From Candidatus Freyarchaeum deiterrae (lineage in GTDB: Archaea; Asgardarchaeota; Jordiarchaeia; Jordiarchaeales; Jordiarchaeaceae), in assembly GCA_037305845.1 (NCBI GenBank), contig CP147778.1, forward strand, positions 1,472,001 through 1,536,000: DNA of 64,000 bases, in the 5' to 3' direction. Every line of letters begins with the position of its first letter. Position 1 is the stretch's first letter. The notes beneath the pieces are model-generated. The model saw nothing but the letters and a program-made list of their open reading frames with translations, searched no databases and was not told where the DNA came from. Of this stretch, positions 1-28,739 are shown piece after piece. A program made the translations under genes and the position numbers.

Positions 1-465
1 TGTTCCGATGATTAATGTGCGCTGAAATCCACAGGGAACTGATCCATCGAGATAGTTTTTTCGTAGGATGTGCAATTCGTCTATTACCTTTGCATTAAAC
101 AGGAGTGAAATTTCAATACCTATGTCTATCGCTTCTTGGGAGATGTCAAAAGGAGGTGTTTGATGCTTGCAGGTGTTCTACATGCAAGTTTCATCTATCT
201 CATATGTGCAGTTAACATCATTAAATCCTTCATATACGATAGTACGTCCTTTTTCATACTCAACTAGCATTGCTTCATCATACTTCCCCATCTCACCTAA
301 TACTGGTCTAAAATATCTCTTAACTAGAAATTCGGGTTCATCGGTTTTTAGAATTGGCTGACAGAGACAGAATAGTTTGCGATTGGTTAGAAGCTCCTGG
401 TGAATTTCAATTCCTGCCTTGAATCCTAGTTTTTCGTATTCTAGCTCCAATAGAACCGCCTCCAA
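1..465 (-). CDS. gatE: Glu-tRNA(Gln) amidotransferase subunit E, 5' part (runs off window start); interrupted by a 30-nt BHB intron at 160..189; exons 465..190 and 159..<1
   Basis: GFKAGIEIHQEL..KLFC motif; after intron removal reads CTYEIDE|TPPFDISQEAIDIG...LHILRKNYLDGSVPCGFQRT, matching GatE/GatB motifs. Start may be the TTG at 450. Confidence 0.92.
160..189 (-). other. BHB-type mRNA intron in gatE (30 nt, contains in-frame TAG)
   Basis: Minus strand GATG-AA|A-CTTGCA-loop-TGCAAG-CATC-AA|A: 4-bp helix GATG/CATC between two 3-nt bulges. Confidence 0.88.
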
Positions 466-640
466 TTTTTTAAGGTTTCAAACACATTATCCGATGGTAA
501 CAACAAGAACCAACACCTTTTTCTTCATAATAATATCTCTTTCTAAAAATCTTTTCTAAGGCTTACAAAAATTCAAAGTATTTATAACTATTTCATTGCC
601 TAGTCAGCATTGTATTCTAAACTTTTAGGGGCAAAAACAC

Positions 641-2248
641 TTGGAAACCACGGCTTCTCTTAAAAATATGCAAAAAATGGCTTGCAGGGAAATAATAGAG
701 CAGGTTCTAAACAATAAGGAAATGAACGAGGAGCTAAACAAATTAAAAATAAAAATTTGCCAGAAATATCACCTAAATAAGGTTCCTAGGAACTCGGAGA
801 TTCTTAGCTATGCCTCGGAACAAGAGAGACAATATCTGCTACCCCTCTTAAGAAAGAAGAGAACACGTACAATTTCAGGTATCGCCATCGTAGCCGTAAT
901 GTCTAAGCCGGCACCCTGCCCCGGTACTTGTATCTACTGCCCTGGAGGTACCATCGCTCCGAAATCCTACTCAGGGCATGAGCCAGCAGCCATGAGAGCT
1001 ATTCAGAATAATTTTGACCCATACTTACAGGTAAAATCTAGGATTAAACAACTAGGAGCAATCGGCCACAGGGTTGACGGAGGCAAAATAAAGCTCGTGG
1101 TAATGGGTGGAACATTTCTTTCTCTCCCAATAGATTATCAGCATTACTTTGTACAAAGATGCCTTGATGCAATAACCGATATTTCTTCAGATACACTGGA
1201 TGAAGCAAAAAGAAATGCAGAACATTCTCGTACTAGAAATGTGGGAATAACTTTCGAAACACGCCCTGATTATTGCAGAGAAAAGCACGTCGATAACATG
1301 CTCAATATGGGGGGAACTAAAGTGGAAATTGGAGTTCAAACTGTTTACGATGATATTTACAAACTTGTTCACAGAGGCCACACTGTACAAGATGTGGTAG
1401 AAGCTTTTAGGATAGCTAAGGATTCGGGTCTCAAGGTTACAGCGCACCTTATGCCTAATCTTCCGGGATCAGATTATAGTAGAGATTTGGATATGTTCAA
1501 AACCATCTTTGATGATCCAAGGTTTAAGCCCGACAGCCTGAAGATTTATCCTTGTTTGGTACTTGAAGGCACGCCTCTCTACGATTTGTATATTAAAGGT
1601 GAGTATAGCCCTTACACGACGGATGATATCGTCAAACTTGTTGCTGAAGCTAAACGTATAATTCCAAAATGGATCCGTATTCAACGTATTCAAAGAGATA
1701 TACCTTCAAACCTAATTGTTTGCGGTGTGAAGAATGGCAATCTAAGGGAGTTAGCCGCTGAGGAGCTGGCAAGAAGGGGGTATAAATGTCAATGTATACG
1801 TTGCAGAGAAGTAGGTCATGTATCGCAGAGAAATCCGAATCTTTTACAAGGGGCAGAAGTGTTTTTACACACTGAGAGCTACTCTGCATCGGAAGGGGAA
1901 GAAGTGTTTGTATCCTATGAAAATAAGGATAGAAGTATTTTAGTAGGGTTTTTAAGACTTAGACGACCATCAGATTTGGCTCATAGACCTGAGATTCGAA
2001 ATTGTGGGTCAATGGTTGTTAGAGAATTGCATGTTTATGGTCCACTTGTACCCGTTCATGAAAAGCCAAGGGATGAATGGCAACACCGGGGATACGGTAA
2101 AAATTTACTAAGTGAAGCCGAAAAAATTGCCAGAGAAGATTATGATGCAAAAAAGCTCCTAGTTCTCTCTGGCATAGGAGTTAAAGAGTATTACTATAAA
2201 CTGGGATACAAACCTGATGGCATCTATGTTTCAAAAAAATTAAAATAG
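641..2248 (+). CDS. elp3: Elp3 tRNA U34 carboxymethyltransferase (radical SAM + KAT)
   Basis: CPGTCIYCPGG, MGGTF, ETRPD, LKIYP, QRIQRDIP, VRELHVYG, QHRGYG motifs. Confidence 0.96.
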   Translation: METTASLKNMQKMACREIIEQVLNNKEMNEELNKLKIKICQKYHLNKVPRNSEILSYASEQERQYLLPLLRKKRTRTISGIAIVAVMSKPAPCPGTCIYCPGGTIAPKSYSGHEPAAMRAIQNNFDPYLQVKSRIKQLGAIGHRVDGGKIKLVVMGGTFLSLPIDYQHYFVQRCLDAITDISSDTLDEAKRNAEHSRTRNVGITFETRPDYCREKHVDNMLNMGGTKVEIGVQTVYDDIYKLVHRGHTVQDVVEAFRIAKDSGLKVTAHLMPNLPGSDYSRDLDMFKTIFDDPRFKPDSLKIYPCLVLEGTPLYDLYIKGEYSPYTTDDIVKLVAEAKRIIPKWIRIQRIQRDIPSNLIVCGVKNGNLRELAAEELARRGYKCQCIRCREVGHVSQRNPNLLQGAEVFLHTESYSASEGEEVFVSYENKDRSILVGFLRLRRPSDLAHRPEIRNCGSMVVRELHVYGPLVPVHEKPRDEWQHRGYGKNLLSEAEKIAREDYDAKKLLVLSGIGVKEYYYKLGYKPDGIYVSKKLK

Positions 2249-2390
2249 TTAAGTTCTCATTTTTTTCGAGAACCGTTGATTTGGCAAGAGTAGTATTCGC
2301 TTTTCTTCAAAGAAGTTCGCTTTAAGTTTAAGCAAAACGTGTTTTTTCCGACTAGGTAATGTTTACAAGGGTCACAGACAGTAACAGTTT

Positions 2391-2762
2391 TTACTTTAGT
2401 TCTGCTATTTTTTTAGCTATGTCATTAATTAAATCGCGTGCGTTTCCCGGTTCGATTATGCTCACGGCAGCAGATGGAACGTCTATTCCCGAGGCAGTGC
2501 CAATCTGTTCTCTACTGCGCACATAGATGTACGGAATTTTTTTCTCCTCGCAGAGCAGCGGCACATGAGCCACAACTTCTGGAGGGTCGACATCTTCTGC
2601 CAGTATAACTAGTTTAGCTTGCCCACGTTCTATGGTCTTAGTCGTCTCATTTGTGCCCTTTCTAATCTTACCGGTATCACGCGCAATCTCTAGCGCTTGC
2701 AGAGCTTTTTTGACTAGCTCATCTGGGACTTGAAACCTTACATAAAAGGGCTTCGACAACAA
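2391..2762 (-). CDS. rpl7ae: ribosomal protein L7Ae / K-turn binding protein
   Basis: [24 protein letters not shown] motifs. Confidence 0.97.
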
Positions 2763-2773
2763 TCATTCCTCCT

Positions 2774-2793
2774 TCGGGCAGCGCCCTCATCAT
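2774..2793 (-). promoter_or_regulatory. probable K-turn in the rpl7ae 5' leader (L7Ae autoregulation site)
   Basis: Minus strand ATGATGA-GGGC-GCT-GCCC-GA directly before the GGAGG RBS. Confidence 0.55.
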
Positions 2794-2912
2794 TTTGTGG
2801 GGCATCGCTCTGAATTGATTATTGGTAGGAAATAAGTTATCAAGTTTCGCTTATGAAATTTTTGGTGATATTAAAATTTGGAGAAGAACAGCGTAATTCG
2901 AGTGGATAAATT

Positions 2913-3428
2913 TTATCTAGACAGAAAGTTGAGAACTTCATTAAGAGCACATTTAAACCATATGGTGTATTTTTCTGGGTGTTTTTCTACGTTTTCTTTA
3001 AGCGTATCTATACTTACCCATTTAAAATCTTCTGCTTCTTCTGGATTTAGTTTGATTTTCCCGTCATGTTTTCCGATAAAAACGTGGTCGAATTCATATT
3101 CAGTAAGATTATGATCAAGATTAGCTTTATATACAAAATCGAAAGATTCTTTCAAATCACAATCAAAACCCATTTCTTCCATTAATCTTCTATGAGCAGC
3201 TTTATCTATAGCTTCCCCGGGTCTTGGATGGCTACAACAGGCATTTGACCATAGACCACCGGAGTGATACTTACTCTTTGCTCTTTTTTGGAGAAGCATT
3301 TCCTCCCTTGAGTTAAAGATAAAAATTGAGAACGCGCGATGTAGTTTCCCTTCTTCGTGTGCTTTTATCTTTTCTTCTGTGCCTATTTCTTTATCAGTCT
3401 CGTCCACTAGGATTACTGTTTCTTTCAT
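2913..3428 (-). CDS. idi: isopentenyl-diphosphate delta-isomerase, type 1 (Nudix fold)
   Basis: LHRAFSIFIFN, LLQKRA..KY, WSNACCSHP, EYEFDHVF, NPEE motifs; start placed at MKETVILVDE. Confidence 0.95.
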   Translation of the reverse strand: MKETVILVDETDKEIGTEEKIKAHEEGKLHRAFSIFIFNSREEMLLQKRAKSKYHSGGLWSNACCSHPRPGEAIDKAAHRRLMEEMGFDCDLKESFDFVYKANLDHNLTEYEFDHVFIGKHDGKIKLNPEEAEDFKWVSIDTLKENVEKHPEKYTIWFKCALNEVLNFLSR

Positions 3429-3499
3429 GTTTAATGCCTCTTTTTTATAAACTAATAACAATTTCGCATACATTGCCATGAAAACTTCAATTTTGATAA

Positions 3500-4318
3500 T
3501 TATTGGGCAGATATAAGAGTTCCCAACTCTTTATTTCCAAGTAGGGAGTTTAGTATGTATCCCTCCTTTTTAGCGTTTATTATTTCTACTTGGATCCCCC
3601 TTTCCACAAGAGGTAAGAGCTCCAATATTTTACGGCGCATTCCCCCAGTAACGTCGGTGGTTTTGGAACCTGAAACGTTTCTTAGAGTTTTTTCAATATT
3701 ATCTGGTGTAATTAAACGAATTAATTTAGCGTTTTTATTTGTGTTCGGATCAGAATCAAATACGCCGTCCACGTTAGTTCCGAAAATTACGCGTTCGGAG
3801 TTTAGTTTTTGGGCCAAAAAAGGTACGATATGGTCACCAGACAATATGCTGTAGCCCTGTTTTTCATCAAAAACAGCATCTCCCCAAAGCACAGGTATAC
3901 AACCCAGATTTAATGCTGACATCAGGGTTTTAGTGAACATGTCGGATAATTTACTATCCTTCTGGATAGAAATGGCAGAAGGCTGTAAAGGAATAGCGGG
4001 TAGTCCAAGGTTCTGAAGCTCCTCCACGAATATTAGATTAAGTTTACGCATAACTTGAACAGTTTTAGTAAATCCCAATATCTGATTACCAGACTTTAAA
4101 CCTAGATGCACATTATACTTAGCCGCAACGCTATGCCCAAAAGAACCTCCCCCGTGAACTAAAACTAGTTTCAAATTGGGAGAGCGGTCAAATGCTTCTT
4201 TAATCTCCATAGCTATTCTCTTTATGGCTTTGAAATCAGCGAGCATATCCTTCTCTTTTTTTGTAATGACACTTCCTCCAACCTTAAGTATAACAATGCT
4301 CATCGTTATCTCTTCCAA
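3500..4318 (-). CDS. ipk: isopentenyl phosphate kinase
   Basis: LKVGGSVIT, VHGGGSFGH, ILSGD, DVTGGM motifs; adjacent to mvk. Confidence 0.93.
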   Translation of the reverse strand: MEEITMSIVILKVGGSVITKKEKDMLADFKAIKRIAMEIKEAFDRSPNLKLVLVHGGGSFGHSVAAKYNVHLGLKSGNQILGFTKTVQVMRKLNLIFVEELQNLGLPAIPLQPSAISIQKDSKLSDMFTKTLMSALNLGCIPVLWGDAVFDEKQGYSILSGDHIVPFLAQKLNSERVIFGTNVDGVFDSDPNTNKNAKLIRLITPDNIEKTLRNVSGSKTTDVTGGMRRKILELLPLVERGIQVEIINAKKEGYILNSLLGNKELGTLISAQ

Positions 4319-4337
4319 AAGCAGTTTAGTTTTCCAT

Positions 4338-5304
4338 TTAGCTCTTCTCTATTTTCGCCCCTTCTTGGGATATGTTGGTAATAATGGGTTTTCCATCAGC
4401 TTTTAGTAAAGCATCAGCTATTTGTTTCTGTTTCATTTCCGGTGATAGAGCTATCATGCAGCCTCCTCCGCCTGCGCCTGTTAACTTTGCGCCATATGCC
4501 CCATTTGTTCTAGCTACGTTTATGAGTTTGTTGAGTTCAAAGGTGGAAACACCTATTGCCTCTAATAATCCTTGGTTAATGTCCATTAATTCTCCAAGCG
4601 CTGGTAAATCATTCTTTTCTAGAAACTTTAGACTCTCCATGACAAGTTTGCCTATTGAATTAATAATTGGGGTTACTACTTCGGTTTGTCTATCTCTCCT
4701 CAACCTAACCTTCCTAACCCATTCTGCCGTATTTCTCTCTATGCCTGTATCTCCGATCACGAGAGGTATTCTGGAGTTTAGTTTGACTGGTTTAATGGTG
4801 CCCCCTTTGTATAGTATAATACTTCCATTAGTTGCGATTGTGTTATCGATTCCGGAAGGCGTTCCATGGACAATTTTTTCAGCCTTAAAAGCTATATCAG
4901 AAATTTCGGATTTAGAGAGATTTAGATTTAGCAAAGCGTTTATGGCCATAGTAAGAGCTACAGAAACCGCTGCAGATGAACCTAGTCCAGCACCCGGAGG
5001 AATGTCCGACCTTATAGAAATATCAAAACCACGATCAAAACCGCTCCGATTTGAAATCTCTTTACAAACAGCACATGCTGGAATAAAAATACTTGGTAAA
5101 TGTGACTCTGGCTCGCTTTCATTAATTTTAAACTCACATGACTTCTTATATTCTTGGGAGAAGATTTGACATTCTTTTTTATCATTTAAACTGGCAGTTA
5201 CATAAACCCGCTTATCTATCGCAGCCACTAACGCGGGTTCCCCATAGACAACCGCATGTTCACCGAAAAAAAATAACCTTCCCCGGCGCCGAAGCTGTTA
5301 CCAT
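4338..5304 (-). CDS. mvk: mevalonate kinase; one extra base in a T8 run (5266..5273) frameshifts the N-terminus
   Basis: MVTASAPGKVIF / FGEHAVVYG lie in different frames; PGAGLGSSAA, HGTPSGID, GAKLTGAGGGG motifs. Confidence 0.9.
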
Positions 5305-5405
5305 ATCAATTCACCCATCGGTCAGCCAGCATGAGTCCTATAAGGCTCAGCTTATTCATTTATTTTTAATTCATACCTCTTATACCAATTCAAAACTACA
5401 ATTTT

Positions 5406-6014
5406 TTACCTTTTAACTTTGGCTTCAAAATCATCTACAGAAATGGGTAGTTCCCCGTCAGGCTGGATTTCTCCTCTCTCCCTTAGAACCTGCTGTGCTA
5501 ATAACCAGTATATAATGGAGAGCGCCCTACGTCCTTTATTATTACTTGGAATAACTAGATCAATATTCTCGGTAGAATTATCTGTATCACATAGAGCAAC
5601 CACCGGGATTCTAGCCGTTGCAGCTTCAGTTAATGCCTGCGAATCCGCCCGGGGATCGGTGAGCATTATAACATCAGGCTCAATGTACCTTCCTAAAGAG
5701 GGGTTTGTAAAAATTCCAGGAATAAATCTTCCAGCTATCGTGTTAGCACGGATTATGCTACTGAATTTACGTACAGGCCTTTGACCATATTGTCTTGCAG
5801 ATACAAGAGCTATTCTTGCTGGTTCGAATCTTGCTAGAAAACGACCAGTTACTCTTATTCTCTCATCGGTCTTTCTGATGTCGAGAACATAGAGTCCATC
5901 AGACCTTACCCTATAGATAAAGGGCTCCATACTTTTGGTTTTAACCTGTGTCCCAATATGGACTCCTGCGGCAAGATACTTATCCAATGGAATTAATAGT
6001 TCTGGCTCAGACAT
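5406..6014 (-). CDS. rps2: ribosomal protein uS2
   Basis: [28 protein letters not shown]. Confidence 0.97.
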
Positions 6015-6087
6015 TATGTAACACGCTCAAATTCTAATTGGATTTGGATGTCTGTGAAATAACGTTTAGACCTAAAAATTTTATGGG

Positions 6088-6288
6088 TTAGGTGTGTTGA
6101 CTAAAGGGAAGTATATCGTCAATTAGGTTAATATGACTAAGCATCATACGCCTACAACAGTATCGTGTAATTTTCAGACTGGTTAAAACGACATCCGGCG
6201 GCTCACCTTGTCTTACTCTTCTAATAAACTCTTCCCATTTGTCAGCTATCAATTTACCACATGTAAAGCATCTTATAGGTATAATCAT
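6088..6288 (-). CDS. rpoN: RNA polymerase subunit N (Rpo10)
   Basis: [12 protein letters not shown]...RYCCRRM. Confidence 0.97.
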
Positions 6289-6432
6289 ATGACAAATCTC
6301 CATCAACCATTAAAAACTGACCAAACTTTCCTATCACACAATGTTTTGTACTATTGGTGAAATAAACGTTTTTTGGATTTTTAAATAGAATGTAAAGATT
6401 ATGCAAAGCTCATCTGTTCTTAAATTAGCTCA

Positions 6433-6843
6433 TCACCTGTAACTCTTTTGGACTTTTGCCCTGGCGCCTCTTCCTCCAGGTTTCTTTGGTTCCTTTTGTC
6501 TAGGATCGGAAACTAGAAATTTTCTATCGTACTCTAGAAGTTTTTGTCTTATTTGAGGATCGTCGAAATATTGGGTTAAGGCCTTCGCAATGGTGGTTCT
6601 AGCTGCTTCTGCTTGACTCGTTATTCCTCCACCCTGAACTGTAACGTCTATGTCAACTTTGTTATATAAAGCGGGTTCTACCAGAATTAATGGTTCCATT
6701 ACTTTTTGGCGGGCTAAAAGTGGTTCTATTAGTTTAACGGGTGTCTTGTTAACTCTGATTCTTCCTGAGCCCGGTTTTAGAACCGCTCTGGCTATTGAAT
6801 TCTTCCTTTTTCCGCTAGTTAGTATTACTATCTTTTTACTCAC
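6433..6843 (-). CDS. rps9: ribosomal protein uS9
   Basis: GKRKNSIARA, GGG, EPKKPGGRGARAKVQKSYR. Confidence 0.97.
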   Translation of the reverse strand: MSKKIVILTSGKRKNSIARAVLKPGSGRIRVNKTPVKLIEPLLARQKVMEPLILVEPALYNKVDIDVTVQGGGITSQAEAARTTIAKALTQYFDDPQIRQKLLEYDRKFLVSDPRQKEPKKPGGRGARAKVQKSYR

Positions 6844-6862
6844 AATTAAACCTCCGTGAGTT

Positions 6863-7441
6863 CTAACCTACAGGCGATACCCATCCTATTTCATTGGAAA
6901 GTGTTTCTATAGTAATATAGGAACAATCTGATTTTTTAATATGAGCATAGGAAATGGTTTGGGAGGGAGCTTTGCCCAAATACTCGGGTACGCCTAGATA
7001 AACTCTTAGATGCTTGTAGGCAGCCTTTCCTTTAGGTCTCTTCCATGGAAGCATGCCTCGAATGGTACGTTTAACTATTCGGTCGGGTCTTCGAAAATGG
7101 AATGGCCCCTTCAAAGGTTGTGTGTGTGTTTTAATTTGTAATTTCCATTTGTATCGGGATATAATTGCTTTTTTGGTACCAGTAATTACTGCTTTCTCAG
7201 CATTAATGACGGCTACCCTTTGTCCTTGCACAAGATGTGAGGCGACCACGCTTGCCAACCTTCCGAGAATAAGGTTAGTGGCATCAATTACGACTAGGTT
7301 GTCTAGGGGGAGGGAGCCTCTAATTTTCTTTTCGCGGGGTTGTCTTGTTTTTTCTGATTTTTTCTCTATTTTCTTCTCTTCTACTGATTCCGTTTCTTTC
7401 TTTTTTCCAGATTTTTTGACTTGTTTTGACATTTTACCCAC
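6863..7441 (-). CDS. rpl13: ribosomal protein uL13 with Lys/Glu-rich N-terminal extension
   Basis: VIDATNLILGRLAS, NAEKAVITG, RTIRGMLP. Confidence 0.96.
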   Translation of the reverse strand: MGKMSKQVKKSGKKKETESVEEKKIEKKSEKTRQPREKKIRGSLPLDNLVVIDATNLILGRLASVVASHLVQGQRVAVINAEKAVITGTKKAIISRYKWKLQIKTHTQPLKGPFHFRRPDRIVKRTIRGMLPWKRPKGKAAYKHLRVYLGVPEYLGKAPSQTISYAHIKKSDCSYITIETLSNEIGWVSPVG

Positions 7442-7443
7442 GT

Positions 7444-7809
7444 TTACCCTATTATTTTGACATTAGTGCCTGAAGGATTTCTTTTCATAAGTTCTTGAAT
7501 GGTTATGCATTCTCCTCCAGTCTTTTTAGCTTTGTTTGTCGCTTCCTTAGAAAAAGATAATGCTGCTACACATACCTTATGGTTTAATTCTCCTGAACTC
7601 AAAACCTTTCCAGGCACTAAAACGGTGTCATCATCAACGGTGTATCTGTTAATTTTGGATAAGTTTACAGAAACCTGATTCCTAGCGGGTCTCCTTAATT
7701 CGTCTGCCACTCTGCTCCATAGGTTATTTTTTTCTGATTTTGATTTTTTTGTAAGTTCAGCTATCAATTTCCAAACTTCAGGATTCGTTGGTCCAGTTGG
7801 TTTAGGCAA
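7444..7809 (-). CDS. rpl18e: ribosomal protein eL18
   Basis: TNP, VNLSKINR, VPGKVL; conserved gene order. Confidence 0.95.
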   Translation of the reverse strand: MPKPTGPTNPEVWKLIAELTKKSKSEKNNLWSRVADELRRPARNQVSVNLSKINRYTVDDDTVLVPGKVLSSGELNHKVCVAALSFSKEATNKAKKTGGECITIQELMKRNPSGTNVKIIG

Positions 7810-7846
7810 TATTTAACCTCCGATTTTCATGTCTGACAATGTATAT

Positions 7847-8653
7847 TTATGTAGTTTGTGAGGCGAGAAGTGACTGTAGCTCTTTAACTTTTTTCTCAAA
7901 TATTTCAATAGATGTTTTTACTATCTCCTCTGGAGGGAGCGCCTCAGTGGATTCTATATTAAATATAAACGAGGTGTCATCCGCTTCAACGTGGATGGCG
8001 TCAAACTCGCATTCGTTTTCGCATGCTTTGCATAGTGAACAATTAAAGACATCCTTTATCATGATTGATTTATTCTTGAGATCCAAAACGCCTTTAGGAC
8101 AAATTTCTACACAATCACCACAAGCTTCGCATTTGTCTCCTTCAAGTTGCACGATTGGTTTATATTTATAAGAACATGTGGAAACGGGTTGGTATTTTGC
8201 ATGATCCTTGCCTCGACCAAGAGAGGCATAAGCTTCTAGTACTATCCGTTGCCCTCGTGCTAAGCGAACAATAGGAATTTTATCACTTACAGGAACTACT
8301 GAGGGATCCTGAGATTTTAGTTCCCCCGAATAAACTATTACTCCTTCTTCCTCCGCTTCCCTCTCGAGAGTAAAGGTAAGTTGACACTGAGTACACCCAG
8401 CTCCTTGGCAACTGCATTTTTCAGGTAAATTATAACCCTGCAAATCGGTTTTGAGAGGAATAAGACCTAAGCGGTGCCCAAGAACTTCATCAAATAGGGG
8501 AGATGTGTTTTCTATGATAATGACCTCATCAATAGCCATAACCGGCACTTCAGCTAAGATTATGCGCCGTAAAGCATTAGCGAATGAAACATCGATGTTC
8601 TCCACCATAAACTTCATTGTATTTTCATCCTTGGATAGTATACGGATGTTCAT
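7847..8653 (-). CDS. rpoD: RNA polymerase subunit D (Rpo3) with ferredoxin-like Fe-S domain
   Basis: ANALRR, HRLGLIP, GKDHAKYQP; CxxCxxCxxxCP and CxxCxxCxxxC. Confidence 0.97.
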   Translation of the reverse strand: MNIRILSKDENTMKFMVENIDVSFANALRRIILAEVPVMAIDEVIIIENTSPLFDEVLGHRLGLIPLKTDLQGYNLPEKCSCQGAGCTQCQLTFTLEREAEEEGVIVYSGELKSQDPSVVPVSDKIPIVRLARGQRIVLEAYASLGRGKDHAKYQPVSTCSYKYKPIVQLEGDKCEACGDCVEICPKGVLDLKNKSIMIKDVFNCSLCKACENECEFDAIHVEADDTSFIFNIESTEALPPEEIVKTSIEIFEKKVKELQSLLASQTT

Positions 8654-8798
8654 AATTACACCAACGAGCTAGTTAAAGTACATTAAATAATTAAAAACTC
8701 TTTCTTCAATAAGCACAATCAACAACATATAAAAATTATATAAAGTTACTCACTCTCTTTTTTCTAAAAATTTTAAGACGTAGGGAGTTATTATAATT

Positions 8799-9200: not shown

Positions 9201-9232
9201 TTTTCATTCCTCTATTTTCTAATTTATCATCA

Positions 9233-10397: not shown

Positions 10398-10542
10398 GCA
10401 GGGATAGCCAAGTGGTAAACGTTAAACGTATCCGCAACGGCGCAGATAGTCTACAATGGTAGATAGCGTAAGCCTGGAGAACTTTCTTGGAAGCCTGTGA
10501 TCCGTAAGGATCGCGTGGGTTCAAATCCCACTCCCTGCGCCA
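10398..10542 (+). tRNA. tRNA-Ser(GGA) with three introns (~10419..10436 D-loop, 10446..10471 anticodon stem 29/30, 10480..10491 at 37/38)
   Basis: GCAGGGA/TCCCTGC acceptor, long variable arm, TTCAAAT, encoded CCA; removing the introns gives an 89-nt cloverleaf; usual position upstream of rps13. Confidence 0.88.
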
Positions 10543-10629: not shown

Positions 10630-11672
10630 CTATTGGGTTTTTTCTTCTTTGTGTTTTTTCCATAGTGAGGGGTAGGTTCCGGGTTCCATTAGTACTCTGT
10701 CTACTTCTACTGCGATTCCGTGATTTGAAGAGTACATTTCTTCGCTGCTCATTTTTGAGCTGCCTAAAGCTACTGCTTCATTTTTGAGTGTGAAAATAGC
10801 AACAAGGTTCCTTACACCTATTTCGCTCTCTAGCTTTACTATTCCTGGGACTGTTAGGTTGGCGCCATGGCAGATAGAGTCCACGGCTGAGTCGCGTATG
10901 AATATTTTGGGTATGTGTTCTAATGCCTTTTCCATGGGTTGTATTATGTTTCTTAAGAAGGATTCATCTCCATCTTCCTTCCAAAAATGGTAAGCATCAA
11001 TAACATCATGCAGGTTTGCAAGAGTATCTTCTTTGAAAGGCCCGGTTCGGGTTCGTCTGAGTTCTTTCATATGGGCGCCGCAGCCCAAGATTTCACCAAT
11101 ATCGTGGCAGAGCTTTCTTATGTAGGTACCCGCCTCGCAACCAACGCGAAGAAGCCCGTTTCGAGCCTCCATCTCTTTTAATTCAATATAGTATATTTCC
11201 CTAATTCTAAGTCTTCTTCTAACGGAGGAGCGGAGTGGTGGGCGTTGATATATTGGCCCTACGAGCTCATTTACAACGTTCCTGAACTTCTCTTCTGGCA
11301 CGTCGCCGTGTAGTTGAATGACGCAGACGTATTCTTTCCCCGCCGGAAGAAGAGTCTGAACCACTTTGGTTGCTGATTCCAAAGCTACAGGGAGTACCCC
11401 GGTGACTTTGGGATTTCACTACTCCTCGCAAAATGCTAGAGGAGTTCTAGTGTCCCAGAGTGACCCGCCTTTTGAATATTGAGAATTTTTTTAACCCAGC
11501 TAACTACTTCATGCGAAGTTGGGCCAGGGGGCTTATCCACATTGATTATACCATTTTTTATGTATTCTTCTATTGGGCGTTGGTTGGGTGGGGTTCCATA
11601 CGTGGGGTCTGAAGTTGCTTCGGCTTTTTCAATTAATTCTCTTTTCTTGTCACTTGGTAAAAAGTGGTCCAT
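10630..11672 (-). CDS. cbf5: H/ACA pseudouridine synthase Cbf5 (TruB family), split by a 32-nt BHB intron; exons 11672..11447 + 11414..10630 = 336 aa
   Basis: [11 protein letters not shown], spliced [25 protein letters not shown] domain. Confidence 0.95.
11415..11446 (-). other. BHB mRNA intron in cbf5 within the catalytic Asp codon
   Basis: GGGA-CACT-AG|A-ACTCCTC...GAGGAGT-AGTG-AA|A-TCCC: strict BHB. Confidence 0.95.
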
Positions 11673-19788: not shown

Positions 19789-19829
19789 CGTGTTATCCCT
19801 CTTCTTTTTCTATGATTTTATTAGTCTTT

Positions 19830-20558: not shown

Positions 20559-21139
20559 AGTAACTTCCCTTCTAGGAGTATTATCATAATTGATTAGCAT
20601 AAGATGAGAACGAGATAATATTCACCTTACTGCTATGCAGAATAAGCGATTACTTACTTAAACTTAAATTTTACGCATCCAGATTCAGAATATAGCTTTG
20701 AAACATTGTTTTATACTAATTTTTTACCAAAAATATCAATTTTATTTAATTCAACTCACTTTTCTTAATCGAGTTTTATTTTAATCTGTTTTGTACGCTT
20801 CTTTGACTGCTAAGGAAATAAAAAATTTTTGGCGTTTATCTTCGTTGTAACCTCGAATTCCAGTAGAAACTCATGAGAAGAACTGTAGAAATCCCAAAAA
20901 ATGGAAAAGATTGAAGAAAGATCATAAGAGACTATCCCCCTATCTTTTAGGGAATGAAACTTTCTTGTCTAAATCGTTTTAATATACAATTTATATATAT
21001 ACTTAGAAAGCAATAATTAAATCTGAATAGTATCTTAAGTCAATGCAATATATTGAAAACCTGTTTAATCCAAAATATGGAATTTGTTTCAGATATGAAT
21101 GCCCTTAATAGGACTGAAATGTTAAAGGAGGCCCACTGC

Positions 21140-21733
21140 ATGGGAGAACAAAAAGATAATGTTTCCAGAATTTACGAGGAACTTTCTGCGCTAAAAAGTA
21201 TTATGGATGATTTTGCAAAGGTTGTTGCCTCTGTTTTTAATGAAATTAAAGCCAGTATTTCGGATATTCAGGCAAACACTCAAGCTTTACAGAAGAGCAT
21301 TCAAAACTTGCAATCTGCGCTTCCACAGCAAATACGAGACTCTTTACAAACAGATCTAAACAATTTAAAAGAAGCTGTTCAATCTGCCTCAGTAAGTGCC
21401 CCACCACCTACTTCAGCCTATGCAGCTCCGGCTGCGGGGGATACTGCTTCGTCCAGAGTTGCCTACTCTGGAGCGGGTTTAAGACGCCCCGCTGACGCGT
21501 TCATGCCGTTAATTGAAGCTTTGGAAATGAGATCATCAGCTGTGGAGATTGCTGGGAAGTTGGAAGAAGCAAGAGACACACTGCAGTCCCGTTACCCTTC
21601 AAATCCAGCATTCTATGAAATCACGAAGATAGTAAAACAACTGAGGAGCAAGGGAAGCGCCAAACTGGATCGAAGTGCAACAAATGAATTAATGAAAATG
21701 ACAGAAGAGTGGAGCGGAAGAATAGTCAAGTAA
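21140..21733 (+). CDS. hypothetical protein: N-terminal coiled coil, Pro/Ala linker, helical C-terminal domain
   Basis: Long ORF, AAGGAGG RBS before ATG 21140. Confidence 0.8.
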   Translation: MGEQKDNVSRIYEELSALKSIMDDFAKVVASVFNEIKASISDIQANTQALQKSIQNLQSALPQQIRDSLQTDLNNLKEAVQSASVSAPPPTSAYAAPAAGDTASSRVAYSGAGLRRPADAFMPLIEALEMRSSAVEIAGKLEEARDTLQSRYPSNPAFYEITKIVKQLRSKGSAKLDRSATNELMKMTEEWSGRIVK

Positions 21734-21996
21734 TCTCATATCCTTTAAAAATATATAAAAAAACCTTTGTAAACTGATCTTAGAGTCTAATAAAAATTTT
21801 CTTAAAAAATGATAAGAAAAATTTTATATTTAACTACCCCATTCTACCCGTAACAAATATTAATTTAAATGTTATAGACTAGATGTTCATCAACATGAAT
21901 TCGATTAACGTTTTGCTAGGTCCAGAAATGGAGTATAATTAGCAACAGAAGCATCATTGCGAATGGTCTCACTAAAAACCTAAAGAAGGAAAGAAC

Positions 21997-22572
21997 ATGG
22001 TTAAAACAGCTTATTCAAAATTAGAAGTGGAAATCCCCACAAATGTCAATGTACAATTGAAAGACATGGTTGTAGACGTAAGTGGGCCGTTGGGATCCAC
22101 AAGCAGAGATTTTTCACACGCTAGGAATATAAGAATCTCGAAAATGGATAACAAAATTATTTTAGAAACGTCTTACCCGGATAAAAAGAAATTAGCATTA
22201 CTTGGTACAATAAAAAGCCACATAGTAAACATGATAGATGGTGTAACCCGTAAATTTAGATATGAAATGAAAATAGTCTACGCTCACTTCCCGATAACCG
22301 TTGAATACGAGTCCGCAAAAAACACATTACTGATAAAAAATTTCCTAGGTGAAAGAAGCCCCAGAAAGGCGAGTGTACTATCGGGAGTAGATGTTCGAGC
22401 TGCTGGTGATAACGTTACCCTTGAAGGTGTAGATAACGAAAGGGTTGGACAAACTGCAGCTAATATCCAAAAAGCTACCAAAATAAGAAAAAAGGATCCG
22501 AGGGTTTTCGGTGACGGTATTTACGTATATAGGAAATATATTGGCGACAAACTTGAGTGGAAAATACTTTAA
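21997..22572 (+). CDS. rpl6: ribosomal protein uL6 (inverted relative to the spc operon)
   Basis: VEIP..V, GPLG, YAHFPI, NFLGE, GQTAANI, DPRVFGDGIY. Confidence 0.97.
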   Translation: MVKTAYSKLEVEIPTNVNVQLKDMVVDVSGPLGSTSRDFSHARNIRISKMDNKIILETSYPDKKKLALLGTIKSHIVNMIDGVTRKFRYEMKIVYAHFPITVEYESAKNTLLIKNFLGERSPRKASVLSGVDVRAAGDNVTLEGVDNERVGQTAANIQKATKIRKKDPRVFGDGIYVYRKYIGDKLEWKIL

Positions 22573-22676
22573 ATTTATTTATTGTTTTTTAATTTAATAT
22601 TTTTAACAAGATTTATTATTTTCTAAATATACCATTAAAAATTAGTGCCCTGCTAAAGGGCTTTATTTTTATTTTT

Positions 22677-23078
22677 TTAATACACGTATGCGATTAGTCT
22701 ACCGCCTGTTTTTTGGGTTTTTGCCTCGTAGTGTGACATAACCCCATTTGGAGTTGACACTATTAGTACTCCAAAGTCTGGAGCGGGTAGATACTGAAAT
22801 TCCATTTTTTCGAAGTCTTTGTTTTTTACTGGGAATCGAGGTTTTATTACTCCACATTTATTTATTCTTCCAAGAAGTTGGACTCGGAATTTGCCGGCAC
22901 GCCCGTCATCTATGTACTCAAACTCCCCGATGTATCCCTGTTTTTGCATTACTCGGAGGACGCTTCCAATAAGTTTGGAAGCGATATTTATAGTCACTTC
23001 CCTTTTTCCTACGCTTTCACTATTACTTATGCTACAAAGGGCGCCCGCGACTGGATCATTTCTAGTCAAGCATTCCAC
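22677..23078 (-). CDS. rps8: ribosomal protein uS8
   Basis: [37 protein letters not shown]. Confidence 0.97.
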
Positions 23079-23087
23079 CTCTTATAT

Positions 23088-23234
23088 TCAATTATACTTT
23101 TTGAAGCCAATTTGTACAGCCTTTTCTCTGAAGCATCTTCTGCAAATATACAAGTTGTATCGCCTTATTATAGCTCTGTGGGTGCCACAGACTTTGCAAA
23201 CACGGCTGCCTCTACCAAATTTTTTCTTTGACAT
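23088..23234 (-). CDS. rps14: ribosomal protein uS14 (48 aa, below ORF-track cutoff)
   Basis: [17 protein letters not shown]...[14 protein letters not shown] read from the sequence. Confidence 0.96.
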
Positions 23235-23237
23235 GAT

Positions 23238-23813
23238 CTAATAGCTCTCCTCTTGCTCTTCTTTGAAGGAAACCCCGAACTCTTCTTCCATGAAAGTTAT
23301 TGTTTCCTCTTTAGTTACTTGATGTGAATGAGGAATCCTTCTACGCAAAAGTCTCCTTCTTTTAACCCTATATCCTGGGCGTTGCATAGCGACACAGATA
23401 TCCATACCGAATATACCTAGTTGTGGATCGTATCGAACTCCGGGAATCTCTATGTGCTCGGTGAGCCCAAAGGAGAAGTTTCCCATATTATCTATGGAGT
23501 TGGGGTCAAGCTTCATTTCCACGACTTCCAAAACTTTTCTTAAGAATTCTTTGGCCTTTTCGCCCCTAAGAGTTACCTTGCATGATATGGGTTCCCCTTT
23601 TCTTAATCCCCAGTCACGAATAGTTTTCTTAGATTTACATTGTACTGGTTTTTGTCCTGTTAAGCTTTCTAATACAGTGTTGGCTTTGACCAGTTTTTCT
23701 CCGCTACTACCTACCGCTAGATTGACCACTACTTTCTCAATGCGTGGTTTTCGCATCGGATATTCTACCCAATGTTTTAAAATTTGCTCTTTATCAATCG
23801 TCTCTTCGCTCAA
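23238..23813 (-). CDS. rpl5: ribosomal protein uL5
   Basis: KVVVN, TGQKP, KVTLRG, GNFSFG, YDP.LGIFG. Confidence 0.97.
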   Translation of the reverse strand: MSEETIDKEQILKHWVEYPMRKPRIEKVVVNLAVGSSGEKLVKANTVLESLTGQKPVQCKSKKTIRDWGLRKGEPISCKVTLRGEKAKEFLRKVLEVVEMKLDPNSIDNMGNFSFGLTEHIEIPGVRYDPQLGIFGMDICVAMQRPGYRVKRRRLLRRRIPHSHQVTKEETITFMEEEFGVSFKEEQEESY

Positions 23814-23817
23814 AGTA

Positions 23818-24588
23818 TTAACTCTCCAGTGCTTTTTCTACAAGTTGAATTTCGGGTTTGCTTTCTCCCACAGGGAACACATAATCTAATGCGGTTTCGA
23901 AGATAGTACCATCCGGTGCTTCTAATGAAACCACGCTGGCGTGGGGCCCAAAACGTGGGATTATTTCCTTTATTTTTCCCTGAAATCCCATATTTTTGCC
24001 AGCAATTACAATAGCGAAATTCTTCTCCTTAAACGGAATGTGCCCGATTATTTCTTGATCCGGTATAGAAAGTTTTAATGCATCTCGTGTTTTATAGGGG
24101 ACTAACTCACTGGGAGATGCTTTGGGATTTTCCGTTCGGATTAGTATATTGCGTCCATCATGTAGATTTATTTGCAAATGGCCTCCCTTGACAGTGACCT
24201 TATTTGTTATTTGGCATAGTTTATAAGAGGCTTCTTCATTTCCAATGGGAATAGGTCTCAATCCCTTTTTCGATACGGGTAGTATACGATAAAATTGGTT
24301 TAGTTTGGGAATTTCAATTACATCCATCAGACCGACAGGAAACCTGTGGTCACGTCTAACTTGCCCATCAACCTTTATGTTTCCCTCTGAAAGGATAAGT
24401 TTCGCCTCACTAGATGTGTTACTGTATTGCAGAATTTCGCGAATCAGTATCATGAGAGGTAAACTTTCACTAGCACTATGTGGTCCTGCCCTAGGTTTGA
24501 CAACCCACTTGGTTTCCTTTCTGTGAATTGGCCATATTTTTGGCGCTGATATTCTTTTCTGCTGTTTTCTTCCACCATGTTTACCCAA
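23818..24588 (-). CDS. rps4e: ribosomal protein eS4
   Basis: GPH, VDG.VRRD..FPVGLMDVI, LHDGRN. Confidence 0.97.
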   Translation of the reverse strand: MGKHGGRKQQKRISAPKIWPIHRKETKWVVKPRAGPHSASESLPLMILIREILQYSNTSSEAKLILSEGNIKVDGQVRRDHRFPVGLMDVIEIPKLNQFYRILPVSKKGLRPIPIGNEEASYKLCQITNKVTVKGGHLQINLHDGRNILIRTENPKASPSELVPYKTRDALKLSIPDQEIIGHIPFKEKNFAIVIAGKNMGFQGKIKEIIPRFGPHASVVSLEAPDGTIFETALDYVFPVGESKPEIQLVEKALES

Positions 24589-24589
24589 A

Positions 24590-24964
24590 CTAATCTACCT
24601 CTGCGGCTCCTGTTTTTCGTTTAATAATCTCTTTTCTTCTTTTGTCGTCTAGTTTAAGTTTGCCAATCATTACCTTGGAAGGGTGTATAGGATAAAAAAT
24701 CGTTTTGCCATCAGCTTTTTCTATGGTGGCTCCGGCTATCTGCACTCGATAGTTTTTTGTATCAATCTTTTCTATTTTGCCTTCCAAACCAGAGTATGAA
24801 CCAGACGTGACGACAACTTCGTCCTCTTTACGGAGAGGCATAGAAGTTATTCCGTATTTTGCTTTCAAATCTGGCGTCAAGGCTGCACTAACAGTTTTTC
24901 TCCTCTTATGAAGAGGAGCTGTGTAAGCCCTTTTTCTTTGGGTTCTTGGTTTTTTCGATTTCAC
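24590..24964 (-). CDS. rpl24: ribosomal protein uL24
   Basis: QRK..YTAPLH, PIHPSKV. Confidence 0.96.
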   Translation of the reverse strand: MKSKKPRTQRKRAYTAPLHKRRKTVSAALTPDLKAKYGITSMPLRKEDEVVVTSGSYSGLEGKIEKIDTKNYRVQIAGATIEKADGKTIFYPIHPSKVMIGKLKLDDKRRKEIIKRKTGAAEVD

Positions 24965-24986
24965 TGCCTTTAACTTCCTATAAGCT

Positions 24987-25412
24987 TTATACGATCATGC
25001 TTGCGACACCAGCCAAGCGTGACCAACGCTCCGCAGCCTCTTTAGCGATTGGCCCTCTAATTTCTGTGCCTTTAGGTTGACCATCTGGGCTGGTTATTAC
25101 TGCAGCGTTATCTTCGAATTGTACCCAATCACCATTTGGTCTGCGGAATGGTTTCTTTTGTCTTACAACTATTGCTCTTAATACCTGCCGCCGCATGTCA
25201 GGAGTTCCCTTCTTAACTGAGACCACGGTCATATCGCCAACTGTAGCAGCGGGTAACCTATTCAGTCGCCCCTTATATCCGATTACGTCAATTATTTCCA
25301 CTATCTTTGCGCCAGAATTATCAGCGCAAGGTACTTTTGCACCTACGTTTAATCCTCTAGATAGATCGGGAATGAATAATGCGCCTACTTTTCCACGGCC
25401 TCTTTTAGGCAT
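24987..25412 (-). CDS. rpl14: ribosomal protein uL14
   Basis: [28 protein letters not shown]. Confidence 0.97.
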
Positions 25413-25742
25413 TTATTTTTCCTCCTTTTTCTCTACAACTATAAATGAAACCGTTTTGCTTATTCGGCGGCACTCCATAAATTTCACTAAATCTCCAACT
25501 TTAACATCAATACAAGGAGGTTTGTGAGCGGGAGTGTGTGAATGTCTACGTTCATATCTATGGAACTTTCTAATATACCAGAGATAATCACGTCTGACTA
25601 TTACGGTGTCTTTCATCTTATCCGTGACGACTAACCCCTCGAAAAGCCTTCCTCGGACTGATATTTTCCCGTGGAAAGGACAATGTTCATCATCGCACTT
25701 GTTTTTTGGAGGGGTAACTTCTATTCCTATATTTCTTGACAT
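25413..25742 (-). CDS. rps17: ribosomal protein uS17
   Basis: CPFHG, RYERR, ECRRISKT. Confidence 0.97.
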   Translation of the reverse strand: MSRNIGIEVTPPKNKCDDEHCPFHGKISVRGRLFEGLVVTDKMKDTVIVRRDYLWYIRKFHRYERRHSHTPAHKPPCIDVKVGDLVKFMECRRISKTVSFIVVEKKEEK

Positions 25743-25841
25743 TACGATTCCTCTATATTGAGTTCATTTTTTACAAAATCGGTAAGAGCAATAGTCTAAG
25801 TTAACACATATTTTATGGATGAACCGATTTTTCGAGATTAT

Positions 25842-26144
25842 TTAAAAGTTTTGTGGACTTTTAATTTTATATATGTTTTTTGTACGATCCTCCGGTCTTC
25901 CTATGATTTTTTTACCTTCAACTTCTATTGCCGAACCATCGGAAAGTACGAATTCAAAGGTTGATACGCTTTTCGGAATTTTTTTTATCCCGTTACTTTC
26001 TATAACAATTATGTTTTTTGTTTCATCAATAACTATTCCACTAATTAAATAACCTTTGTGTGTACTCTTAACTACTCTAACTGGTAATCCAATTAATTCA
26101 TGGTATATTATGTTTTCCCTTGTTCTTTTTTTTGAAGGTTTCAT
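25842..26144 (-). CDS. rnp1: RNase P protein component 1 (Rpp29)
   Basis: HELIGL, G.VIDETKN, GRPEDR. Confidence 0.93.
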   Translation of the reverse strand: MKPSKKRTRENIIYHELIGLPVRVVKSTHKGYLISGIVIDETKNIIVIESNGIKKIPKSVSTFEFVLSDGSAIEVEGKKIIGRPEDRTKNIYKIKSPQNF

Positions 26145-26184
26145 ATGTTTTGTTAATTTTCTTGCTTAATAAAAGTTTCAAACA

Positions 26185-26397
26185 CTATTTTTCTTTTTCA
26201 GGTTTTTTCTCATTAGTTACTGTAAGAATTCTTGCTATTGTTCTTCTAATCTCTTTGATTCTACCCGGATTTTCGATTGCACCACCCGAAGCTTGTAAAG
26301 CCCTCTGTGCTAACAGCTCAGATCTGTACTCATCCAGTTTCTTCCCTAGCTCTTCCGGGGTCCATTTTCTAACATCCTTCATTCTGACTACGGGCAT
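26185..26397 (-). CDS. rpl29: ribosomal protein uL29
   Basis: ENPGRIKEIRRTIARILT. Confidence 0.96.
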   Translation of the reverse strand: MPVVRMKDVRKWTPEELGKKLDEYRSELLAQRALQASGGAIENPGRIKEIRRTIARILTVTNEKKPEKEK

Positions 26398-26428
26398 TTC
26401 TATACCTCAATTATATTATTTTTAGATT

Positions 26429-27094
26429 CTACTCCCCGCCTTCCGCGCCTTCTCCCTCTGCTTTTACTTCCGCCTCATGTTCACCCTCAGCAGTCCCCTC
26501 AGGTTCCACAATTTCTATATCATCCGGTAAATGTGAATTGGGAAGCATTATACTGACGTGTACACCAGTTATTCCTGGTTTACTCAAAGCGTGGGCAACG
26601 GCATCGTCAACAAATAGAAGCGCCGGCTCACCAGTTTTTGAAATGAATCCATCCCTAAATTTTTGGTATTTTGCGCGCTGACTTGTAAGTTTTCCACTAA
26701 CCTTTATTTCAACACCCTTGGCACCAGCTGCCATTACTCTTCTAAGAATTGAGTATGCGGCTCTTCTGAAGTGAATTCCTCTTTCCAAGGCGGATGCTAG
26801 ACGTGTTGCCATTACACGGGCATTAAGTTCCGGTTTTTCGATTTCATTAACTTCGATTTGAGGGTTCTCAACTCCAAATTTACTTTCTAAAGCTTCGGTA
26901 AGGTCTCTCACAGTACGTCCTCTTCTTCCAATAACTAAACCGGGACGTGCTGCATGAATTATTACCCGTGTCCCTAGAGCGGTCTTTTGAATATCCACCT
27001 TTCCATACCCAGCCTTCTTAAGCTCATTGGCCAAGTAGTCATCTATTTCCGCCTTTCTTATTCCTCTTTCAATAAAATGATCCTTTGCTGGCAT
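26429..27094 (-). CDS. rps3: ribosomal protein uS3
   Basis: RPGLVIGRRG KH motif, FRRAAY, GAKGVEI..SGKL. Confidence 0.97.
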   Translation of the reverse strand: MPAKDHFIERGIRKAEIDDYLANELKKAGYGKVDIQKTALGTRVIIHAARPGLVIGRRGRTVRDLTEALESKFGVENPQIEVNEIEKPELNARVMATRLASALERGIHFRRAAYSILRRVMAAGAKGVEIKVSGKLTSQRAKYQKFRDGFISKTGEPALLFVDDAVAHALSKPGITGVHVSIMLPNSHLPDDIEIVEPEGTAEGEHEAEVKAEGEGAEGGE

Positions 27095-27108
27095 TATGCT
27101 CCTTCCAA

Positions 27109-27594
27109 TTACTCTTCAGCTGATATTCTTTCTTCTTCAAGAACAATTTCGACATGAGTTAAATTTCTGTATTTGGGTGATGTTCTTCCAAAAGCACGCG
27201 GCATAGCTCGCTTAATTATGCGTCCGTGTTCAGTCGCCGCATGAATGATACGTAAACTATCGGTGTCCAAGCCCTTGTAGCTTGCAATTCCCTCAACATT
27301 ATCGAGAATTTTTAATATAGCCCGGGCAGCCTTTACGGGATAACCTCCAGTATGCCATTTATGGAGACCCTTGTGATGCGCCCTTAGTTTATTGTATCTC
27401 TTAAAGGGAACCATCTGCTTCATTTCGATGACTGCTTCTAAATATTCCTTTGCGTCATCTAGCATCTTACCCTTGATGCTAAGGCATATTTCGCGTGCAT
27501 GTTTTGGCGAAATTCGAAGATCACGCCCACTGCCTTTCGCAGTACGAGCGGGATCCAGTCCAAACACCGAATATCCAAAGTTAGGCATCCGCAC
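27109..27594 (-). CDS. rpl22: ribosomal protein uL22
   Basis: ISPKHAREIC, VPFKR, GYP.KA, PRAFGR. Confidence 0.97.
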   Translation of the reverse strand: MRMPNFGYSVFGLDPARTAKGSGRDLRISPKHAREICLSIKGKMLDDAKEYLEAVIEMKQMVPFKRYNKLRAHHKGLHKWHTGGYPVKAARAILKILDNVEGIASYKGLDTDSLRIIHAATEHGRIIKRAMPRAFGRTSPKYRNLTHVEIVLEEERISAEE

Positions 27595-27856
27595 ACACCT
27601 ATATACTCATGTGAGTTATATCCACACTAAGCGACGTATAAAAACGTTTTGCTTTTATAATAATCCGATAGCTTGTAGCAACCAGTTTTAAAGGGTAATC
27701 TAATAATTTTCAAGTTTTTTTATCAGTAAACCTTTTAGACCTTATTTACATATAAAATCAAATGAAGTTTATTTATTGATTCAAGATTAAGTTAATTATT
27801 GCTTAATGTCTTGATTCTTAATTCAACGTGTCTAAAATTGTAATGGAGGAAATGAA

Positions 27857-28288
27857 TTGAGTGGTATTGCAGTTGGTGATTTCTTTAAAGAGCTATCAGC
27901 TCTTCTCGGATCGCGGGTTGAAGTTAACACCGAAATCGGAAAATCTTACAATGGTATCCTCAAAGGATTTGACAGAACCACACTCAGTATAGTATTAGCG
28001 GAAGCTAAGGATAATAAAGGAACTTATTATCACCGCATATTTATACGAGGCGAAAAGATCAATGAAATAATAAAAGCAGAGGAACCCTTTGACATGAAAG
28101 GACTTTATTTTGAACTCAGAAAAAGTTACCCCCCTGGGGAAGTAGAGTTTTTAGAAGACAGCCGAATTATACTTGTTCTAAAGAAGATAAGAGTAACCGA
28201 GGACGGGGTTGAAGGAGAGGGGCCCCTAGCAGACAGGATAAGACAGGTATATGACAAATATATTCAAGAGAAAAAACCAAAGCAGTAA
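27857..28288 (+). CDS. Lsm/Sm-like RNA-binding protein with C-terminal domain (SmAP3-like)
   Basis: Sm1 GKSYNGILKGFD..LSIVL, Sm2 IFIRG; extended C-terminus. Confidence 0.85.
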   Translation: MSGIAVGDFFKELSALLGSRVEVNTEIGKSYNGILKGFDRTTLSIVLAEAKDNKGTYYHRIFIRGEKINEIIKAEEPFDMKGLYFELRKSYPPGEVEFLEDSRIILVLKKIRVTEDGVEGEGPLADRIRQVYDKYIQEKKPKQ

Positions 28289-28389
28289 CCAACCAATTTT
28301 TTCTATTCGTAGCAAAGACACAACAGTAGGGTGAACTTTGGTTCGTATGTAGCATAATGACCCGTTGCAAAAGGTACTCATAGTGTTTT

Positions 28390-28739
28390 CTATTCTACCT
28401 TAAGTGGAAACGTGTAAATTCTACATAGAGCCACTGCTTTCCAAGGGTCCAGCAACCCCTGCTTCTGTTGATAATCTTTTCTTGCCTTTTCTTCCCTCGC
28501 TTCAATGCAACTTTTGCACCGAGGATGCCTCGGATCGATTAGCCCAGCCTGCGGCTGTGTGGCCCTTCACATGAAGCGCAGTGAAGCATTAGAACAGGCA
28601 GATTTTCACTGATTTCTATGCGAAAATACTCGTTGCCATCAAACTCATCCTTAAAATCGGGCCAAATTCCGTAAAGATTCTGAGACTCAAGAACTTCTTT
28701 TAAACGAATGAATATTTTTTCGAAACTCGTCATCTCCAT
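28390..28739 (-). CDS. small Cys-rich conserved protein (109 aa), split by a 20-nt BHB intron; exons 28739..28559 + 28538..28390
   Basis: Spliced product ...LHCASCEGPL DPRHPRCKSCIEARE...WKAVALCRIYTFPLKVE*; the unspliced frame stops inside the intron. Confidence 0.8.
28539..28558 (-). other. BHB-type mRNA intron (20 nt)
   Basis: GGCC-AC|A-CAGCC-GCA-GGCTG-GGCT-AA|T. Confidence 0.82.

Follow-up and report, generated by a model that had tools for sequence, protein, structure and literature searches.

Three protein-coding genes of Candidatus Freyarchaeum deiterrae, gatE, cbf5 and a gene for a small Cys-rich protein, are each interrupted by a short insert within the stretch of 64,000 nucleotides (nt) analyzed here (contig CP147778.1, positions 1,472,001 to 1,536,000; hereafter the window). 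We are confident that these inserts represent real introns, which the archaeal tRNA-splicing pathway, acting on bulge-helix-bulge (BHB) motifs, would excise from the mRNA. The argument draws on the position and fold of the inserts, the proteins that their removal restores, their conservation in relatives and the presence of the enzymes, from which we infer cleavage by the endonuclease EndA and joining by the ligase RtcB. Judged by sequence comparison, Ca. Freyarchaeum very probably splices mRNA routinely.

The inserts were found at the coordinates given in a first-pass annotation of the window, all on the minus strand (Table 1). Each carries a stop codon in the frame of exon 1 and, as had been described, starts with A, ends in AA and forms a complete four-pair central helix with an inner hairpin. 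The first-pass annotation had also proposed that cutting after the second base of each bulge restores the reading frame. The predicted cuts coincide with the junctions defined by homology, and full-length proteins result in all three cases. Loss of the in-frame 30-nt gatE insert gives a protein of 639 amino acids with the junction EIDE/TPPF, while loss of 20 nt from the Cys-rich gene gives 109 amino acids with the junction CEGP/LDPR. The cbf5 insert splits the Asp codon of the GTLD motif between bases 1 and 2, and its removal gives 336 amino acids. Intact second copies of gatE and cbf5, which had been named as evidence that would speak against splicing, were looked for in the genome; none was found, nor one of the Cys-rich gene, and all three genes are single-copy. 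No fourth intron was seen in the 36.6 kb of the window spanned by external homologues.

The gatE intron occupies the same site in 11/11 genomes of the order (29–35 nt); 17 other genomes are intronless, and both Atabeyarchaeia carry a different, 41-nt gatE intron 5 nt upstream. In a covariation analysis 97.7% of cells were paired and 7 of 13 pairs were altered on both sides; this pairing exceeds all 500 shuffles and every slid control (12–53% paired), in genomes that are related and so not independent. One double-sided change combines a synonymous exon base with an intron base, and the conserved helix includes G-U pairs. In 16 of 41 Asgard genomes an insert of 26–41 nt interrupts cbf5 at the identical base, the site being empty in 25, and an Asp-codon intron of 11–42 nt is present in 44 non-Asgard genomes from Bathyarchaeia, Thermoprotei, Culexmicrobium and Nitrososphaerota (L228-L301). 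Among 59 distinct versions the central helix is complete in 58, with variation on both strands. The Leu codon preceding the site is CTA in 48/60 intron-bearing genes vs 4/57 intronless ones. The insert in the Cys-rich gene recurs in 6 genomes (20–25 nt) and is absent at the exact site in 7; an intronless homologue of its product gave no significant match to any Pfam or Atlas family. On this distribution the mRNA-intron phenomenon is not specific to Asgard archaea.

Only cbf5 carries a full BHB motif: its exon-exon helix has 5 bp, compared with 1 bp in the Cys-rich gene and 0 in gatE, and the latter two inserts are relaxed BHB motifs. The inner helix is present in all three; genome-wide, an exon-exon helix of ≥3 bp occurs in 8 of 29 introns. 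Folding z-scores are −4.5 for cbf5, −2.7 for gatE and −0.3 for the Cys-rich gene, and about 40 other motif matches in the window score like the last of these, so shape alone is no proof for this insert and it is the homologues that supply it. Relaxed motifs are also common among the tRNA introns of the genome. The likeness of intron ends to those of tRNA introns, stressed in the first-pass annotation, holds only in part: among the tRNA introns listed for the genome, 44/60 start with A and 29/60 end in AA (7/9 and 2/9 within the window). No likeness between mRNA and tRNA intron sequences rose above a reversed-sequence control, and no sequence family shared among the mRNA introns was found. Group I, group II and homing-endonuclease introns, which span hundreds of bases and have a ribozyme core or encode a nuclease, were rejected as candidates, the inserts being just 20–32 nt and Rfam reporting only two tRNAs in the window.

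A genome-wide census was made with a BHB score whose end preferences were taken from the tRNA introns of the genome and which requires that removal join two coding-like frames. Mirror geometry served as the null; a shifted-cut null was dropped because a broken gene stays broken nearby. At a score of ≥19, the ab initio scan returned 14 matches vs 1 with mirror geometry, and one of the 14 was false. Matches were checked by paralogue gap lengths, collinear profile halves and external homologues. When insertions were instead defined by homology beforehand, scores ranged from 17.9 to 25.9 for 8/8 well-aligned frame-breaking insertions and did not exceed 13.2 for about 60 in-frame indels; low scores were also obtained for three stop cases with poor alignment. 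In total, 29 introns in 26 genes were counted, about 22 of them with backing from homologues or profiles; since 2 of the 8 cases defined by homology escaped the scan, this number is a lower bound. The prediction that many more such introns exist genome-wide is thus borne out, as is that of mis-annotation, since databases list the exon fragments as separate proteins. The hosts are gatE, cbf5, the Cys-rich gene, rtcB, tyrS, ahcY (three introns), alba, rps26e, kae1, ychF, pcm, a TIGR00375-family gene, an HD-domain gene, selD, nadE, moaE, fbp, porA, hacA/leuC, hdrC, mvhD, hypD, and genes for a ferredoxin, a flavin oxidoreductase, a radical SAM protein and a RuBisCO-like protein (two introns). Most introns measure 20–39 nt and four measure 56–191 nt. 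Two candidates were rejected, 305904-305943 as two separate genes and 2928975-2929004 as the opposite strand of a real gene.

Stop codons are a consistent feature of these introns. A stop in the frame of exon 1 occurs in 26 of 27 short introns. For frameshifting introns, in which the scan filter does not require a stop, the exon-1 frame is closed in 18/19 vs 14/38 for the other frames (p = 4e-5); in tRNA introns the figure is 46% per frame. Introns of relatives with lengths divisible by three contain a stop in 19/19 and 13/13 cases, and homology comparison found no stop-free intron of this length class with a good motif. Placement is also biased, eight sites in six proteins lying at the 65th–98th percentile of conservation within the protein. 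We infer that selection disfavors proteins whose active site holds an insertion, and that introns persist where only exact removal is tolerated.

The genome encodes two EndA paralogues, alpha and beta, and one RtcB, so that both parts of the splicing machinery named in the first-pass annotation are present and the EndA architecture is that of two subunits. The best solved match of EndA alpha is the (ab)2 enzyme of Aeropyrum pernix (E = 8e-43), and the alignment takes in its loop insert as well as the catalytic-motif region; the second paralogue is without the His motif. The Aeropyrum loop allows cleavage of relaxed motifs, and by analogy the host EndA may have broad specificity. A 29-nt relaxed BHB intron (C1:1452796-1452824, L143) also interrupts the only copy of rtcB, 19 kb before the window and right after the Asp codon of LPD/AHQG. 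At this site four genus mates carry a 30-nt intron and a fifth has an in-gene stop; the gene is intact in the other genomes searched. With rtcB split, making new RtcB would require pre-existing RtcB or another ligase.

In the mechanism that we propose, the two-subunit EndA would cut after the second base of each bulge in full or relaxed BHB motifs, and RtcB would ligate the exons. The load of 29 introns would have accumulated alongside the many tRNA introns of the lineage, a permissive EndA tolerating the insertions. Introns would persist mainly in the catalytic motifs of long-resident genes, only exact removal being harmless there, and selection would retain the intron stop, at which a ribosome on an unspliced transcript would halt early. 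More broadly, we lean toward the view that Jordarchaeia/Freyarchaeia and other Asgard archaea splice the mRNAs of tens of core genes routinely and by a non-spliceosomal route, the built-in stops acting as a fail-safe against unspliced transcripts. The intron of rtcB, on whose own product its removal would depend, may in addition couple these genes to ligase capacity. If true, these organisms would offer a living prokaryotic model for many mRNA introns under coupled transcription and translation.

Splicing could also be regulated, the introns gating output on EndA/RtcB capacity or on stress and rtcB forming a positive feedback loop. The sole rtcB is indeed split, at a site occupied in four genus mates; several hosts act on RNA or in translation (gatE, cbf5, tyrS, kae1, rps26e and alba), and sites are conserved across an order. 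However, metabolic, Fe-S or cofactor genes account for the majority of the 26 hosts, introns have been lost cleanly in close relatives (from the Cys-rich gene, alba, rtcB, ahcY and tyrS), other lineages use other genes and sites, and the introns have no sequence in common. Regulation is therefore unlikely in our estimation, and splicing is probably constitutive housekeeping rather than a switch. The first-pass annotation had likened the system to HAC1/XBP1, on the grounds that two of its hosts were RNA-maturation enzymes; given the metabolic, Fe-S and cofactor genes that make up most of the set, this is not supported, and rtcB is the sole suggestive case. In the HAC1/XBP1 system Ire1 cuts a motif of two stem-loops in one stress-regulated target, and Trl1 or RtcB joins the products. 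The short frame-changing intron, cutting and ligation by proteins only and, in animals, an RtcB-type ligase are points in common; the nuclease, the two stem-loops in place of a BHB and the regulation by stress differ.

Short hairpins with an in-frame stop are also a feature of ribosomal bypass elements of the T4 gene 60 and yeast mitochondrial byps type, in which the RNA stays uncut. We regard bypass as highly improbable. Take-off and landing codons mismatch in all three window genes and match in 5 of 24 tabulated introns, the conserved feature is exon-intron pairing in EndA geometry, and contigs without the alba insert occur. Moreover, splicing at this cbf5 position is known from Crenarchaeota (PMC2738675).

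The alba contigs come from public sequencing runs and belong to related species, and alba is not among the three split genes of the window. Compared with a single contig of SRR28530383, contigs of SRR28530378 and SRR28530379 show 0 mismatches across about 13 kb and 8 kb; their sole difference is a missing stretch of 30 nt, exactly the intron predicted there. The same gap is seen in a second species in SRR28530378, which is otherwise 99.6% identical to genome G001. The lack of one intron in two species of a single run points to spliced RNA. Joined and unjoined alba of one strain in sister runs would also be expected if the inserts were elements lost by precise excision from the chromosomal DNA of some cells, an explanation to which we assign a very small chance. 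The inserts have neither shared terminal repeats nor a sequence family, what is conserved is an RNA helix with G-U pairs, and for two species of one run RNA is the simpler account.

Pseudogenes or assembly errors, which might be suspected because the genome is metagenome-derived and every insert either disrupts the frame or introduces a stop, have negligible probability: the split cbf5 recurs on 10 Logan contigs, which stem from separate runs, and the insert is identical in all 6 readable ones, from independently assembled runs; the inserts are present in independent genomes of the genus and order, cbf5 exon 2 shows 40–44 synonymous vs 12–16 amino-acid-changing codons per 100 relative to genus mates, and backup copies were not found.

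Several points nevertheless weigh against the splicing interpretation. The inserts in gatE and the Cys-rich gene are without the outer helix, and their cleavage by the host EndA is a prediction. Most of the additional sites came from prior leads and were then re-derived, so the stop count is possibly biased. Seven of the 29 introns (in rps26e, ychF, moaE, kae1 and fbp, and two in the RuBisCO-like gene) rest on family motifs. The alba gap could be precise DNA loss, the runs being of unestablished library type. Finally, patterns for the spliced junctions of alba and cbf5 gave no match in metagenome contigs, which is weak evidence either way, and full-length spliced Cbf5, GatE or Cys-rich protein was absent from the protein clusters searched.

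The crenarchaeal cbf5 pre-mRNA intron was reportedly described by Watanabe in 2002. In Desulfurococcales and Sulfolobales it measures 16–44 bp (Yokobori 2009, PMC2738675); it resembles that of Ca. Freyarchaeum in gene, position (between bases 1 and 2 of the Asp codon), approximate size, BHB motif and heteromeric EndA. The site is occupied, however, in the 44 non-Asgard genomes mentioned above, a range that goes well past the two orders named in the 2009 report, and cbf5 is the sole confirmed mRNA case in Crenarchaeota, whereas here about 29 introns are spread over 26 genes, cbf5 among them. According to the 2009 paper, further mRNA introns had been predicted without being confirmed, and a paper of 2020 lists as mRNA cases only the cbf5 intron and a Haloferax 5' untranslated region (UTR) intron. 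The latter, a BHB intron in HVO_1309 of Haloferax volcanii (PMC7714728), is likewise an mRNA substrate of the archaeal splicing endonuclease and is cut in vitro, but it is a single case, lies in the 5' UTR and leaves the reading frame unbroken. The non-canonical tRNA introns of Freyarchaeia and Atabeyarchaeia (PMC11291895; bioRxiv 10.64898/2026.10.13.758758) share with the mRNA introns the genome, size range, end preferences, relaxed motifs and presumed enzymes; they differ in that the mRNA introns share no sequence with them and carry in-frame stops. Term searches of these two sources, with supplements to the first, gave tRNA introns only, with no mention of mRNA introns. The literature searched, which left out most subscription journals, contained no account of several BHB introns in protein genes of Asgard archaea. 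The mechanism is thus already known from the crenarchaeal cbf5 intron, and the multi-gene scale described here was not found in print.

In the papers searched, archaeal pre-mRNA splicing inside coding sequence has been reported for one gene, cbf5; about 26 genes appear to depend on it here, several of which are central genes in single copy (GatE, TyrRS, Cbf5, RtcB, AhcY and a ribosomal protein). As database entries for these genes are fragments, metabolic and phylogenomic inventories of the lineages are affected. Two old questions become testable in a prokaryote, namely how an intron load is borne under coupled translation and why inserts persist at catalytic motifs. The suggested bearing on the origin of mRNA introns through the Asgard lineage is not supported. 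The cbf5 intron is common in Bathyarchaeia and Thermoprotei as well. Ancestry of spliceosomal introns is not demonstrated, and the machinery is unrelated.

Table 1. Window coordinates of the three split genes and of the tRNA gene next to cbf5
Feature	Position	Strand	Description
gatE exon 1	190..465	-	92 codons from TTG; PF02934 GatB/GatE N-terminal, profile positions 2-34; open reading frame 178..465
gatE intron	160..189	-	30 nt, phase 0; central helix pairs 192-195 with 162-165; inner hairpin of 6 bp; in-frame TAG at 178-180
gatE exon 2 start	1..159	-	547 codons, extends beyond window; PF02934 profile positions 47-89
cbf5 exon 1	11447..11672	-	DKCLD domain; last base is base 1 of catalytic Asp codon
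cbf5 intron	11415..11446	-	32 nt, canonical BHB; central helix of 4 bp, 11449-11452 with 11417-11420; inner helix 7 bp; TAG at 11436-11438
cbf5 exon 2	10630..11414	-	TruB_N, TruB_C_2, PUA
Cys-rich gene exon 1	28559..28739	-	protein with two CxxC motifs overall, 109 amino acids spliced
Cys-rich gene intron	28539..28558	-	20 nt, relaxed BHB; in-frame TAA is the last three bases
Cys-rich gene exon 2	28390..28538	-	holds second CxxC
tRNA-Ser(GGA)	10398..10542	+	just downstream of cbf5, opposite strand; introns 10446-10471, 10480-10491; Supplementary Data 4 of PMC11291895

The true start of gatE may lie a few codons inside the TTG start. The Cys-rich protein (28390-28739) belongs to a small family of this order and a few other Asgard genomes; its gene converges on an Lsm gene (27857-28288), which heads the ribosomal protein cluster.

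Elsewhere in the genome, all 29 mRNA introns lie within one 1.65-Mb arc (C1:987065-2636190), where nearly all tRNA genes sit. The other 1.9 Mb, in which no mRNA intron was found, contains CRISPR-like arrays and repeat proteins. This distribution suggests slow build-up in long-resident genes. The three introns of ahcY (C1:1876203-1877066, L190) measure 56, 29 and 191 nt; the first and third are alike above background, and the third site is occupied also in G021 and G035. The 191-nt intron is a long hairpin and could hold a nested intron or a small RNA. On one short contig (L305:75-431) the gene caller bypassed the stop of the alba intron by setting TAG=Q, so such introns can mimic an alternative genetic code on short contigs.

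Other Asgard genomes carry intron sets of their own, including other ahcY sites. Two have a second cbf5 intron site (NLD/KPP, 40–41 nt; L084:852-892 and L284 near 3455). BHB introns were also seen in what appear, from their motifs, to be aIF5B (two different sites), pyrG and rpl44e (L153:19163, L161:6573, L150 and L010/L012/L013/L014/L018). Around cbf5 in non-Asgard archaea one single non-cbf5 case was seen, a 22-nt BHB intron in a putative rps11 of Bathyarchaeota (L253 near 15208).

The tRNA-Ser(GGA) gene by cbf5 was used for comparison as a likely substrate of the same splicing machinery. In the complete Ca. Freyarchaeum genome, 92–95% of tRNA genes have introns, according to PMC11291895. 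The published table lists eight tRNA genes in the window, seven of them intron-bearing, of which ARAGORN finds one and Rfam two. They occupy the regions 10398-10542, 32739-33101, 38026-38349, 39223-39341, 41185-41311 and 55885-56048.

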